Shown: positions 10,471-17,190, counted from the first letter of the stretch. The stretch: DNA of 64,000 bases from Candidatus Nomurabacteria bacterium (GCA_031262695.1 JAISHF010000004.1:107993-171992), one strand, 5' to 3'. Notes: generated by a model not told the origin, from the letters alone. Made by a program: numbers and translations.

Positions 10471-10655
10471 GTTCTTGGCATATCTAATTCTATTTGCTCT
10501 ATTTTAAATAGATATCTCGCGGCGTCAAAGCGCGCCCCATTGCGGGATCTTCTATTTGTTTTCTGGGAATACCGACATAAAGGTGTGTCAGCCGCTGCGG
10601 ACGCTATTTTTGCTTGAACGTCAAATTCTTTGCTGTTTGCAAGCATAAGCGGGTA

Positions 10656-10684
10656 TTGACAATATATATGCGAGGTGATATAAT
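10656..10684 (+). promoter_or_regulatory. sigma70-like promoter of the methyltransferase/helicase operon
   Basis: TTGACA (10656-61), a 17-nt spacer ending in TG-A, then TATAAT (10679-84). ATG at 10693 is only 8 nt downstream. Confidence 0.6.
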
Positions 10685-10692
10685 ATAATTAT

Positions 10693-11352
10693 ATGGAAGA
10701 TATAAGCAAGCAAGCAAGCAAGCAAGCAAGCAAGCAAGCGTTAGCGTCGCGTAAAAAGTCGGCGGAGGCGGTTGGCGGTGGGTTTATTAAGTCGCGCGAG
10801 CGGGTCAAAAACGCTGGCGAGGTTTTTACGCAGTCACGCGAAGTCAAAAATATTCTGGCATTGACGCAGGCGACGGACAATGTATTTTGGCGTTTTTTGG
10901 AGCCAGCGTGTGGAAACGGGAATTTTATTGTTGAGATTATTGAGCAGCGGCTGGCGCGGATTAAGAAAAATCCGAATTATCGTCCGCTTGACAGGCGTGA
11001 GTTTGCGATTTTGAAGTCGGTTAGCACGGTTTATGGGGTGGATATTGCGGCGGATAATATTGAGGAGTGCAAAAAGCGGGTGACGCGGACGATTTTGAGT
11101 TATTTGCCGAAAAAATCCTCGGCCGGGTTTTATAAGGCACTTGCGAAAATTCTGGATACGAACTTGCTTGTCGGCGATATGCTAAATGGCAAAGACAAGA
11201 TTAATTTTACTGAATATGAATTTTTCGCGCCAGAATATTTTAGTCGTGGTAAAGTAAAGCGGAAAATATATGCATTGACCGACATGGAAAACGAACTCAC
11301 AAATCATCCGCGGGAGGAATTCCCGCTGGTGGCGATTAGGGAGATGGCGTAA
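10693..11352 (+). CDS. DNA methyltransferase-like protein with SAM-binding motifs only (no canonical motif IV); contains the 5' tetranucleotide repeat
   Basis: GEVFTQSREVKNIL (motif X-like) and FLEPACGNGNF (motif I FxGxG) follow the M.TaqI/Eco57I-type order. No (D/N/S)PP(Y/F/W) is present. Stop overlaps the next ATG (TAATG). Confidence 0.6.
   Translation: MEDISKQASKQASKQALASRKKSAEAVGGGFIKSRERVKNAGEVFTQSREVKNILALTQATDNVFWRFLEPACGNGNFIVEIIEQRLARIKKNPNYRPLDRREFAILKSVSTVYGVDIAADNIEECKKRVTRTILSYLPKKSSAGFYKALAKILDTNLLVGDMLNGKDKINFTEYEFFAPEYFSRGKVKRKIYALTDMENELTNHPREEFPLVAIREMA
10704..10739 (+). repeat. perfect tetranucleotide simple-sequence repeat (AAGC)9, equivalent to (AGCA)8
   Basis: Read directly: aagc x9 without interruption, starting 11 nt after the ATG. 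It encodes (SKQA)3. Confidence 0.97.
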
Positions 11353-12983
11353 TGGCGAATGGCATTTTGACGCAGCTGTTAAACAGCGACCACAAGCCGG
11401 ATATTTTGGATTGTATTGCGAATCTCTCCAACGATGAGGTTTTTACGCCGCCGAAGATGGCGAATAAGGTTCTGGACGCCTTGCCGGCAGAAGTCTGGAC
11501 GAATTCGGAGTTGAAATGGCTTGACCCGGCGGTAAAAACTGGGGTATTCTTGCGTGAGATTGCGAAGCGGCTGATGGTGGGGCTGGCGGATGAATTTCCG
11601 GATGAAGAAAAGCGTCGTGAGCATATTTTTGGGCGAATGCTGTATGGAATTGCGATTACGGAACTCACGGCGCTAATGAGTCGGCGGAGTCTATATACTT
11701 CAAAAAACGCCGGCGGGGAGAAGTCTATTGCGCATTTTTCCGACAACGCCGGAAATATTGACTACGAAAACCGCGACCATAGTTTTGGCGCGGACGGAAA
11801 GTGCGTTTATTGTCGGTTAAGCCGAGATGAGGCAAAGCTCGGCAGTCGTAAAGATTCGCAAGAAAAACACGCCTATAAATTCATTCATTTAAGTAAGAAG
11901 GAGGTAGAAAATATGCATTTTGATGTAATTGTTGGCAATCCGCCGTATCAACTAAGTGATGGCGGATTTGGCGCCTCCGCTCGCCCGATTTATCATCTTT
12001 TTGTTGAGCAAGCCCGAAAACTAAATCCGCACTATATGGCGTTTATTATCCCGTCGCGTTGGTCGGTCGGTGGCGGTAAAGGATTGGGAAAATTCCGTGA
12101 TGATATGCTTAATGACCCGCATTTAAGACATATTTATGACTATCCCGACAGTAAGGATTGTTTTCCGGGCGTCGAGGTTAAGGGTGGGGTGATGTATTTT
12201 ATTTGGGACAAGACTTATAGTGGACGAACAAAAATTCATACAATTACGTCTGAGGAAGAATTGCCAACCGTTACGCTCGATTTACATAAGTTTAATTTTA
12301 TTATTCGCTATAAAGAATTGGCAGAGATTTTAGAAATCGTTTGGCCAAACGGTCCGGTTTCGACAGATGATTCGCGCTCTATCGGTAGCCAAATATCAGT
12401 GCTCAAGCCATATGGCTTGCGCACTGATATTTTCCGCGACCCCAGTAAATACGGTTTGCCACCTCTGTATAAATCGCCCGAAAAAGCCAATCCGAAAGCC
12501 CCGATTGGAGCATTACAAATTCACGGCCTTGATAACACTAAGCGGGCGATACGCTATGCGTCAGCGGACTATCCGTTGTCTGTGGGTAGGGATACGGTGA
12601 TGAAGTGGAAAGTCTTTGTGCCGAACGCCTATGGATGCGGAGCGCTAGGAGAAACGATACCGTCGCCGATTCTCGGCTCGCCGATTCAAATTTGTTCAGA
12701 GACTTATTTGCGATTTGGAACATGGGATACCAAAGACGAGGCGAGCGCGGCGTTGAAATATCTCAAAACAAAATTTTTCCGAGTGCTTGTTGGCGCGAAA
12801 AAGACGACACAACATACAACGAGAGACACTTATTCACTTGTGCCAATGCAAGATTTTACCGAAAAATCTGATATTGACTGGACGAAATCAATTCCAGAAC
12901 TTGACGCTCAACTTTATGCAAAATATAAATTGTCCGACGCGGAGATTAAGTTTATTGAAACGATGGTGAAGGAGATGATGTGA
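11352..12983 (+). CDS. N6-adenine DNA methyltransferase (gamma-class, Eco57I/TaqI-like) with a C-terminal target-recognition region
   Basis: EVFTPPKMANKVL (motif X), WLDPAVKTGVFL (motif I-like) and FDVIVGNPPYQ (motif IV NPPY), in the gamma-class order. Confidence 0.85.
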   Translation: MANGILTQLLNSDHKPDILDCIANLSNDEVFTPPKMANKVLDALPAEVWTNSELKWLDPAVKTGVFLREIAKRLMVGLADEFPDEEKRREHIFGRMLYGIAITELTALMSRRSLYTSKNAGGEKSIAHFSDNAGNIDYENRDHSFGADGKCVYCRLSRDEAKLGSRKDSQEKHAYKFIHLSKKEVENMHFDVIVGNPPYQLSDGGFGASARPIYHLFVEQARKLNPHYMAFIIPSRWSVGGGKGLGKFRDDMLNDPHLRHIYDYPDSKDCFPGVEVKGGVMYFIWDKTYSGRTKIHTITSEEELPTVTLDLHKFNFIIRYKELAEILEIVWPNGPVSTDDSRSIGSQISVLKPYGLRTDIFRDPSKYGLPPLYKSPEKANPKAPIGALQIHGLDNTKRAIRYASADYPLSVGRDTVMKWKVFVPNAYGCGALGETIPSPILGSPIQICSETYLRFGTWDTKDEASAALKYLKTKFFRVLVGAKKTTQHTTRDTYSLVPMQDFTEKSDIDWTKSIPELDAQLYAKYKLSDAEIKFIETMVKEMM

Positions 12984-15957: not shown

Positions 15958-16009
15958 GCGACGTTAGTTTTGAAAATGCAAGGCGAAAAATTGAAGTCGT
16001 TGGGTTAGG

Positions 16010-17053
16010 CTAGGCGGCGTAGTTCTCGGTGGAGAATTCTAGGGCGTCAAGGAAAAGTTGGCGGTAGGCATAGAGGTTGTGTTGCTCGTCTATAAGGAGG
16101 ACGGATTTTTTGTAGGTGCTGTCGTCGGTGTTGCGATAGGAGATTGGGGCGATGTCGCCAGCCATCAGGACGGCATTGCCTATCATTCGGGCGGTGCGTT
16201 TGTTGCCGTCGCTGAAAGGTTGCAAATAAATTAAGAGGGCGCTAATCAGCAGGGCTTTTTCAATGGTGTTGGTTTTGGCGTTAATGAGGTCAATGGCGCG
16301 GGAGAGATTCTCGGTGATGGCAAATTGGTTATCAAGCGGTAGGTAATTGGTGCCAGTGATGCGGACGGCGTGCTTGCGGATGCCGAATTCGACACCGAGG
16401 CCTTGGGTGAGTGATTGGTGGACATCTAAGATGTCAGATAAGTTGAGCTTTTTGAAGTTGGCGAGATTGTTGCGGATGCGGTCAAAAGTAGCTTTGTGGT
16501 TGATAATCATAATCGCTTCGGCCTCGCTGTGGCCCTCGGCTTGTTCGCGGTATTTGAGGAGGGTTTCGGTTTCAATTTGGGAGTAGGTGTTGCCTTCTAA
16601 GCTGGCTGACTTCCAGGCAAAATCTACCGTGAAGCGTTCCAGTTCTTTGGCGTGGAGGTCGAGCGGCAAGTCGGCGACGCGCTTGCGGTAATCGGTGATT
16701 TTGCGGCTGAGGTTGCTGATATTTGGCAAGAGGTTGGTGGTGGCGAGTTTGTCAAAAAACTCGGAATTCGGCTCGGCGGTGAGGGTGCGTTGGTCTTGTG
16801 GTAGAGTAAAATAACTTTCTGGGTTGATTGGGCCAAGTAAGGTGCTGTTGATGACGTAAGCGGTGGTAGGGCCGGCGCCGAGAGGCTTGATTAGGTCGCG
16901 AGCGGCGAGAGTGGAGAGGTCGCGGGCGAGCGTGGCGCGCGAAAGGTCGTAGGTATTGTCGAGCCGCTCTAGTATTTCGGCAGGAGCGATTGGTGCAGGT
17001 GATTTGGTGATGAGATTATAAATTGCTTGTTGGCGCTTAGTTAATTCTTCCAT
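16010..17053 (-). CDS. Fic/Doc-family protein with an N-terminal winged-helix-like region and a degenerate active-site motif
   Basis: Core motif LQPFSDGNKRTARMIGN compared with the canonical HPFx(D/E)GN(G/K)R. SASLEGN matches the (S/T)xxxE(G/N) inhibitory motif. The N-terminus (RQQAIYNLI...LSRATLARDL) is HTH-like. Confidence 0.8.
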   Translation of the reverse strand: MEELTKRQQAIYNLITKSPAPIAPAEILERLDNTYDLSRATLARDLSTLAARDLIKPLGAGPTTAYVINSTLLGPINPESYFTLPQDQRTLTAEPNSEFFDKLATTNLLPNISNLSRKITDYRKRVADLPLDLHAKELERFTVDFAWKSASLEGNTYSQIETETLLKYREQAEGHSEAEAIMIINHKATFDRIRNNLANFKKLNLSDILDVHQSLTQGLGVEFGIRKHAVRITGTNYLPLDNQFAITENLSRAIDLINAKTNTIEKALLISALLIYLQPFSDGNKRTARMIGNAVLMAGDIAPISYRNTDDSTYKKSVLLIDEQHNLYAYRQLFLDALEFSTENYAA

Positions 17054-17087
17054 AGTTTTATTGTATCATATTGGTGCCGTAATCGTT

Positions 17088-17190
17088 GCAAAATGAGACG
17101 ATTTTGGGATAATCATCTCAAAATGAGACGATTTTGGGAAAATCTATGCAAAATGAGGCGATTTTTGGGGTTTTTGAGGCGATTTGGGGG
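17088..17190. repeat. about 3.5 tandem imperfect direct repeats with a 30-bp period
   Basis: CAAAATGAG(A/G)CGATTTTGGG at 17089, 17119 and 17149, plus a partial TGAGGCGATTTGGGGG at 17175. They lie between the prfB stop and the fic -10 element. Confidence 0.9.

Follow-up and report, generated by a model that had tools for sequence, protein, structure and literature searches.

The closest described relatives of the genes treated here are known from work on methylomes. An N6-methyladenine (m6A) motif, GCAGCC, has been assigned to M1-2.DrdVI cloned in E. coli, where the enzyme is labelled Type IIG (PMC6430315), and M1-M2.MaeIV of Methanococcus aeolicus makes m6A at GCACY and has been placed in a "split methylase/RM" family (PMC10113651). 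The R protein of DrdVI has been described as a "fused translocase and REase" with a GIY-YIG domain (PMC4996451). A further related group is DnmA(YeeA)-YeeB-YeeC of B. subtilis, in which an MmeI-like methylase, a helicase and a GIY-YIG protein are predicted to form an ATP-dependent restriction-modification (R-M) system with single-strand modification (PMC2731913, PMC9973331). Here we analyse a 64,000-nt stretch of Candidatus Nomurabacteria bacterium (GCA_031262695.1 JAISHF010000004.1:107993-171992; hereafter the window), in which a 6.7-kb block between the convergent genes for RNase J (rnj) and RF2 (prfB) holds four plus-strand genes, g1 to g4, followed by a fic gene on the opposite strand. We consider it probable that the core of this island is a DrdVI-family, ATP-dependent R-M operon, proposed to be phase-variable, with one passenger gene, g3.

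Three of the four genes find their counterparts in DrdVI. The g1 product is 33% identical to M1.DrdVI over residues 31-219 (E 7e-32), that of g2 is 40.5% identical to M2.DrdVI (E 1e-131), and that of g4 is 46.5% identical to the DrdVI R protein over 834 columns. Plasmid pDrdVI of Deinococcus wulumuqiensis NEB 479 turned up as a plasmid match of the family, and its sole R-M-like genes encode a 212-aa "DNA methyltransferase", a 539-aa Eco57I-domain protein and an 851-aa DEAD/DEAH helicase; in the window as in pDrdVI the order M1, M2, R runs on one strand. The REBASE-derived PADLOC model PDLC03626 (REase_MTase_IIG, 1359 positions) is matched by g4 over 150-808 (E 2.5e-41) and by g2 over 864-1359 (E 1.6e-49), while no cassette protein scores above the NCBIfam cut-off and PHROGs returns generic methyltransferase and helicase families only. 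The cassette shows every defining feature that can be tested on sequence, and its membership of the DrdVI family is, on that basis, almost certain. An earlier description of the locus made from the DNA alone (the sequence-only reading) could not place it in a named R-M type; the gene-for-gene match to DrdVI, together with the PADLOC model on g2 and g4, now supplies that place, and REBASE, where that reading had proposed to look, indeed holds the M1, M2 and R proteins of DrdVI. The family is thus already catalogued, and the cassette does not represent a new type of defence. The Type IIG label given by REBASE and PADLOC, for a type in which a single chain is both endonuclease and methyltransferase and uses no ATP motor, nevertheless fits poorly, since here the proteins are separate and g4 bears a helicase core.

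Like DrdVI and MaeIV, the window combines a small M1, an Eco57I-type M2 and an R protein that joins GIY-YIG/T5orf172 to a translocase, in the same order and on the same strand. It differs from DrdVI in three respects: g3, without known relatives, is inserted between M2 and R; M1 has nine AAGC units in an N-terminal extension; and the target-recognition region of M2 has diverged, so that the specificity of DrdVI need not apply.

The family is widespread. Clustered at 90% identity, the relatives of g4 number over 8000; most are 830-860 aa long, and the best 120 listed are 48-72% identical to it and come from many different phyla. At least 599 GTDB species genomes contain the family, spread over the majority of bacterial phyla and some archaea. 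Genes like g1 and g2 always lie just 5′ of the g4 homologue, on the same strand, in the fetched loci, and when the count is limited to loci with at least 3 kb upstream of R (n = 107), M1, M2 and R are kept in that order in 104. The module is also found on small plasmids and in 59 of 71 IMG/VR viral contigs. Since M1-M2-R recurs in this way and g3 lacks homologues, the conserved unit is made of three genes, not the four-gene system with two extra components that had been claimed.

This bears on the possibility that g3 is an integral part of a new four-component defence system, as the sequence-only reading saw it. Start and stop codons that overlap on either side couple the translation of g3 to that of both neighbours (GTGA and ATGA overlaps, GGAG sites), and another assembly from this organism has the gene as well. 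Against this, g3 matches no family in Pfam, PADLOC, NCBIfam or PHROGs and nothing in the PDB, a search of 5.8 billion proteins recovered only g3 itself, and more than 150 family loci contain neither a counterpart nor a cargo gene resembling it. Its GC content of 34.5% lies 12 points under that of its neighbours (46-49% for g1, g2 and g4), and the product is basic (pI 9.3); the earlier description of an AT-rich unknown of 136 aa is accurate. The distance from the aligned end of M2 to the aligned start of R is below 300 nt in 73 of 104 loci and larger in 31 (about 30%), and where this slot is filled it holds unrelated plus-strand genes, including DUF1016/YhcG, RhuM, AlbA_2/HATPase_c_4, AAA_15/AAA_21 with DUF4276, Bro-N, transposases and unknowns. 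Genes for DUF1016, RhuM and Fic/DOC have been listed between the core genes of Type I hsd operons (PMC9881135), so the same kinds of cargo occupy both places, although the host operon here is of the DrdVI type and the passenger in the window is an ORFan. By its sequence, then, g3 is best described as lineage-specific cargo rather than an integral subunit, and a four-component system appears very improbable.

The two methylase genes divide the motifs of one enzyme between them. In Pfam, g1 gives weak matches to methyltransferase N-terminal families alone; its motifs X (GEVFT), I (LEPACGNGNF) and II (YGVDI) are canonical and the catalytic NPPY is absent, as the sequence-only reading had noticed in calling it a methyltransferase-like protein with only the motifs that bind S-adenosylmethionine. 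An AF2 model of g1 (pLDDT 86) is closest to the N-terminal half of CamA, BrxX, BsaXI, MmeI, LlaGI and DrdV. The g2 product belongs to Eco57I in Pfam (E 9.5e-33) and MTase_II in PADLOC (E 2.5e-60) and has NPPY, so its earlier description as a complete methyltransferase holds for family and catalytic motif but not for motif I, which reads DPxxKxG, nor for motif II, which lacks its acidic residue. In the family alignment it is residues ~295-440 of g2 that vary, which is what a target-recognition region would show, and the C-terminus is conserved.

Across the family this division is consistent. M1 proteins carry EPxxGxGxF in 116 of 121 cases, an acidic motif II in all 101 matched, and NPPY in none of 121. 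In M2 proteins motif I is DPxxKxG, Lys standing for the first Gly, in all 125 matched, motif II has Ala, Gly, Ser or Pro and never Asp or Glu (119/119 matched), and NPPY is present in 131 of 139. These censuses indicate that the cofactor-binding signature is intact in M1 alone and the catalytic signature in M2 alone, a complementary pattern that is reported here for the first time and that, as far as motifs can tell, fits the "split methylase" label. A simpler relation between the genes was considered and dropped: g1 and g2 are not one gene split by a frameshift, as the separate ORFs (open reading frames) are conserved across phyla and g1 is not a missing piece of g2 but a paralogue of its N-terminus. 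By hhalign (probability 97%), residues 41-128 of g1 are homologous to residues 27-112 of g2, a stretch that includes motifs X, I and II.

Several other features of g2 were observed. A His...CxxC...His pattern (residues ~143-179), ahead of NPPY, occurs in the aligned split-type M2 proteins and is absent from the fused relative described below; it may be a zinc-binding insert. At 12391-12432 lies a 42-nt palindrome with 21-nt arms, one mismatch and no spacer, encoding QISVLKPYGLRTDI, which is the longest palindrome in the window and could serve as an RNA hairpin or a recombination site; none was seen inside g2 of the 85 family loci scanned. The second assembly of the organism (Logan SRR14710920, L166) agrees with the window over 6.6 kb with 0 mismatches and one 15-nt gap, an in-frame copy difference in g2 (window 12663-12687 versus L166 1951-1990: TCGCCGATTCTCGGC) by which the peptide SPILG stands once or twice ahead of SPIQ.

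The g4 protein was earlier read as a T5orf172-SF2 (superfamily 2) helicase of 856 aa, and Pfam agrees, with T5orf172 at 20.4 bits (cut-off 20) and ResIII. It is laid out as a T5orf172/GIY-YIG domain (~12-112), which matches T5orf172 and MUG113 alone, an SF2 dsDNA-translocase core (~126-600) and a helical C-terminal domain (~600-856). In the nuclease domain Y15, K26, G28, T30, R46 and E95 are invariant in the family, and Y17 and H81 are conserved at 90% or more; in the motor, Walker A GKT and the DEYH box are invariant and the Q/R motif is kept. No restriction-endonuclease family of the PD-(D/E)xK kind was matched in Pfam or PADLOC, as had been noted from the sequence, but the gap once seen there is filled by the T5orf172/GIY-YIG domain with its invariant residues, which is the candidate nuclease of R. 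Foldseek with an AF2 model of g4 (pLDDT 76) finds Snf2/ISWI/Chd1, RadD, LlaBIII and EcoR124I HsdR; LlaBIII (4xqk) is the sixth match, at E 1.6e-10 and with a query TM-score of 0.37, the highest among the matches listed, and EcoR124I HsdR reaches 0.34. At the sequence level, PDB searches with g4, g2 and family profiles gave no match to solved structures.

How M2 and R may fit together is suggested by single-chain relatives of 1300-1460 aa, found in a representative search. In one of them (P0250, 1464 aa) the Pfam order is T5orf172-ResIII-Eco57I, its last 560 residues cover all of g2 in an alignment at 33% identity, and a gene with weak, divergent g1-like motifs overlaps its own on the upstream side; three other long fused proteins scanned show ResIII and Eco57I, with T5orf172 undetected. 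These fused relatives follow the domain order of Type ISP, and in P0250 a GIY-YIG-type nuclease stands where Type ISP has Mrr. The fused chain joins the C-terminus of R to the N-terminus of M2, which implies contact between them in the split form, and the last 250 residues of g4 are strongly conserved in the family; its C-terminal domain is therefore likely to be the coupler to M2. One locus with a fused 1464-aa gene (L164, 363-9707) has an M1-like gene before it and Abi_2-like, GmrSD and Fic genes after it, in a compact defence island.

Comparison with established R-M types narrows the interpretation further. LlaGI and LlaBIII, which are Type ISP enzymes, likewise unite nuclease, SF2 translocase, N6-adenine methylase and target-recognition domain, and the fused g4+g2 relatives share their domain order. 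One-strand modification is implied for DrdVI also, as adenine occurs on one strand only in GCAGCC; such modification is found in Type III, Type ISP and MmeI-type enzymes, and one-strand systems spare freshly replicated host DNA by needing two unmodified sites in set orientation; in Type ISP, cutting takes two head-to-head sites and collision driven by ATP. The cassette is nonetheless not Type ISP: it has three polypeptides where Type ISP has one, a T5orf172/GIY-YIG nuclease where Type ISP has an N-terminal Mrr/PD-(D/E)xK domain, and an extra half-methylase in M1, and similarity at the sequence level to the solved structures was not found. By analogy, it would work like a split Type ISP enzyme. 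Of the split Type III or ISP logic proposed earlier, the methylase with its ATP-dependent motor and the likeness of fused relatives to ISP stand, and the Type III part does not.

It is scarcely credible that a classical system of Type III or Type I was simply misread here. Pfam does name the helicase domain of g4 ResIII, and EcoR124I HsdR is among its fold matches. But proteins of the HsdS and HsdM types are lacking, the methylase matches Eco57I, Type II and Type IIG models with Type I traces only (E ~0.01), and the nuclease is an N-terminal T5orf172 domain, where Type III Res has a PD-(D/E)xK nuclease C-terminal to its helicase. The families Methylase_S, HsdM_N and HsdR are unmatched in all five proteins of the island (Pfam, NCBIfam), no Type III Mod/Res model was matched in PADLOC or NCBIfam, and no NCBIfam model of Type I or Type III was matched at all.

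DnmA-YeeB-YeeC offers a second comparison, as there too an N6-adenine methylase that has no nuclease of its own is accompanied by an SF2 helicase and by a nuclease of the T5orf172/GIY-YIG kind. These last two are distinct proteins in that cluster and a single chain in g4 (g4 and YeeB/YeeC being compared by description), and its methylase is one long MmeI-type chain for which no M1 partner is described; a Pfam search of g2 found no MmeI family.

The following scheme would accommodate these features. M1 and M2 would jointly make up a split N6-adenine methyltransferase. When foreign DNA lacks methylation, the M1-M2 complex would bind its site there, and R would dock on M2 via its C-terminal helical domain, translocate with ATP and cut through its GIY-YIG domain on convergence of complexes, as in Type ISP. 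One-strand modification, the ISP-like domain order of the fused relatives and the translocase fold point to such a translocation-collision mechanism as the most likely one, and we lean towards it with moderate confidence, largely by analogy. The documented activity is m6A formation by homologous M1+M2 pairs at the short, asymmetric sites GCAGCC and GCACY (PMC6430315, PMC10113651); restriction, the role of M1 and switching are what we infer.

Switching is suggested by a tetranucleotide repeat in the 5′ coding region of g1, (AAGC)9, which the sequence-only reading did not mention and which is the only non-homopolymer simple sequence repeat (SSR) in the window. The tract lies inside an N-terminal extension missing from close g1 homologues, and in this assembly its frame is ON. 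In simulation, 6, 9 or 12 copies give full-length g1 and 7, 8, 10 or 11 lead to a stop within 21 codons, and no alternative start occurs in the first 50 codons. We propose from these properties that (AAGC)9 is a slipped-strand phase-variation switch. SSR switching of R-M genes is well known. As in Type III mod phasevarions, Type I hsdM/hsdS and Type IIG cj0031, the non-triplet repeat stands in the 5′ coding region of a methylase; unlike in those systems, the host is a metagenome-assembled genome (MAG) of the candidate phyla radiation (CPR), Candidatus Nomurabacteria in NCBI, the operon is of the DrdVI type, the repeat is in the half-methylase M1 rather than the catalytic subunit, and switching is predicted. 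No paper on an SSR switch of R-M in the CPR group was found in the literature searched.

Slippage at AAGC would truncate M1, so that the composite methylase is lost and modification is off; a frameshift in M1 would probably lower M2 too, via lost translational coupling, and, provided that R relies on the M complex to find its target, restriction would go off simultaneously, a behaviour known from phase-variable Type III systems. The full proposal, that M1 and M2 form an obligate composite methyltransferase on which R depends and that (AAGC)n slippage accordingly might toggle methylation and restriction together, is one we put forward tentatively, as a possibility about which we remain rather doubtful.

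In a survey of ~3.1 Mb of fetched loci (~150 family loci), long SSRs were three in all, each at the 5′ end of an M1 gene. Their different repeat units, in the window, in L029 and in L031, indicate independent acquisitions. An SSR as a family-wide feature was rejected, as close g1 homologues lack the repeat peptide and long repeats occur in 3 of ~150 loci.

Two loci bear on what the switch may control. In L029, the locus whose M1 contains (CCAG)12, the R gene has TGA at the codon of the invariant Trp196 (~8535), and in L016 it has TAG at the codon of Trp159 (~8430); M1 and M2 are intact in both. These nonsense codons indicate that some lineages keep a switchable methylase without R, and they suggest that L029 and L016 are decaying towards an orphan switchable methylase. 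Taken further, the operon in the window might be mainly a phase-variable epigenetic regulator, a phasevarion-like orphan methylase whose R is inactive or plays no part in defence, as has been suggested for DnmA. An SSR switch in a methylase gene, as in Type III mod phasevarions, would agree with this, as would the fact that methylation is the sole activity shown for DrdVI and MaeIV (PMC6430315, PMC10113651). DnmA-YeeB-YeeC, for its part, showed neither restriction nor phage protection (PMC9973331). In the window, on the other hand, R is intact and all its invariant nuclease and ATPase residues are present; R is retained beside M1-M2 in the 104 syntenic loci and on plasmids and prophages; the locus sits in a variable hotspot adjoining another defence-type gene; and a Vibrio homologue of the related YeeABC cluster changed phage sensitivity (PMC9973331). 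We judge a mainly regulatory role unlikely.

Some observations also weigh against our preferred interpretation, a phase-variable DrdVI-type R-M operon. The literature searched reports methylation only, with neither DNA cleavage nor phage restriction by a DrdVI-family member, and the related B. subtilis cluster gave no protection (PMC9973331). The T5orf172 score of g4 is barely over the Pfam cut-off, a fold match for its nuclease was not isolated, and the likeness of its motor to Type ISP and Type I is at the fold level, the family profile finding no PDB sequence. As to the switch, repeats of this kind occur in merely 3 of ~150 family loci, and the sole other assembly (L166) starts inside the tract, so that its copy number is unreadable and variation was not directly observed.

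The operon itself is tightly organized. Its promoter is the sole perfect sigma-70 consensus match in the region, in agreement with the single upstream promoter described earlier. The ATG of g1 begins 9 nt past the -10 hexamer and has no Shine-Dalgarno sequence, so that the operon transcript is probably leaderless at g1. The downstream genes follow in overlapping junctions, TAATG at 11350-54, GTGA at 12980-83 and ATGA at 13387-90, with GGAG 6-9 nt 5′ of each start (g2, g3 and g4), so the earlier account of four plus-strand genes chained by stop and start codons is exact. The exact g1 protein is absent from the 5.8-billion protein collection, in which g3 and g4 of the same contig are present; gene callers may have missed or mis-started g1 owing to the repeat and the leaderless start.

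The accessory character of the block, claimed from its setting between two housekeeping genes, was confirmed by comparing the junction in relatives. A metagenome scan with the RNase J of the window gave four relatives at 81-85% identity, all of which keep rnj, prfB and two genes past prfB in the same arrangement. The spacing of rnj and prfB is 5 nt in L085 and ~375 nt in L084; in L086 the gap is 1.3 kb and holds one unrelated 365-aa ORF (a Cys-rich unknown), and in L087 it is 3.4 kb and holds three unrelated genes, one with a P-loop motif (GPTGIGKS). None of g1, g2, g4 and fic is found at this junction in L084-L087. The 6.7-kb block, present in 0 of 4 close relatives, is thus accessory rather than core, and the rnj-prfB junction is a variable hotspot. 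As for marks of integration, no tRNA near the island, no integrase and no Rfam family were found, and direct repeats flanking it gave only chance-level matches.

Downstream, on the opposite strand, the Fic/Doc gene of the earlier description matches Pfam Fic (E 2.8e-13), with a weak N-terminal HTH_20 (helix-turn-helix, HTH), and SoFic in PADLOC (E 3.5e-15). While both the Fic and SoFic profiles are matched, the catalytic motif HxFx(D/E)GNGRxxR is not: the window reads QPFSDGNKRTAR, with Gln in place of the catalytic His and Lys in place of the second Gly. The 30-nt repeats 5′ of fic are a possible operator for the HTH-Fic protein, judging by their placement. Fic genes also occur near DrdVI-type modules in L022, L066 and L164. 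The coordinates of all features are collected in Table 1.

Table 1. Features of the rnj-prfB island in the window, with repeats and cargo slots of other family loci (positions preceded by a locus handle refer to that locus).
Feature	Position	Strand	Remarks
RNase J gene (rnj)	8305-10470	+	left flank of block
Operon promoter, TTGACA-17-(TG)TATAAT	10656-10684	+	12/12 consensus match, extended TG
g1, M1 subunit	10693-11352	+	219 aa
(AAGC)9 tetranucleotide repeat	10704-10739	+	TRF 9.0 copies, 100% match; codons 4-16 of g1
g2, M2 subunit	11352-12983	+	543 aa
g3, probable ORFan passenger in M2/R cargo slot	12980-13390	+	136 aa
g4, R subunit	13387-15957	+	856 aa
HTH-Fic gene (fic)	16010-17053	-	neighbour inside island, outside R-M module
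Three 30-nt direct repeats 5′ of fic	17080-17169		TRF period 30, 2.6 copies; repeat family D1, 80-100% identity
RF2 gene (prfB)	17191-18282	-	right flank of block
(CCAG)12	L029 4101-4148		inside M1 ORF, Methyloglobulus MAG
(AATCTGC)8	L031 4813-4868		~60-115 nt upstream of M1, Gallibacterium melopsittaci
Cargo slot	L013 6348-7793		
Cargo slot	L017 6061-7856		
Cargo slot	L029 6942-7964		
Cargo slot	L032 2993-4108		

Knowledge of the DrdVI family has been confined to entries in REBASE and brief mentions in methylome papers, and its Type IIG label hides an architecture built around an ATP motor. Complementary motif loss in the two methylase subunits, the M2/R cargo slot and the recurrent repeats at M1 provide testable handles on a GIY-YIG-based, ISP-like enzyme. 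If the composite methylase is real, it would explain why the family constantly retains M1, and if the repeat switches as proposed, it would be, as far as the searched literature goes, the first repeat-driven phase-variable R-M switch described in a CPR bacterium. For genome annotation, the three-gene signature of M1, M2 and R should count as one R-M unit.

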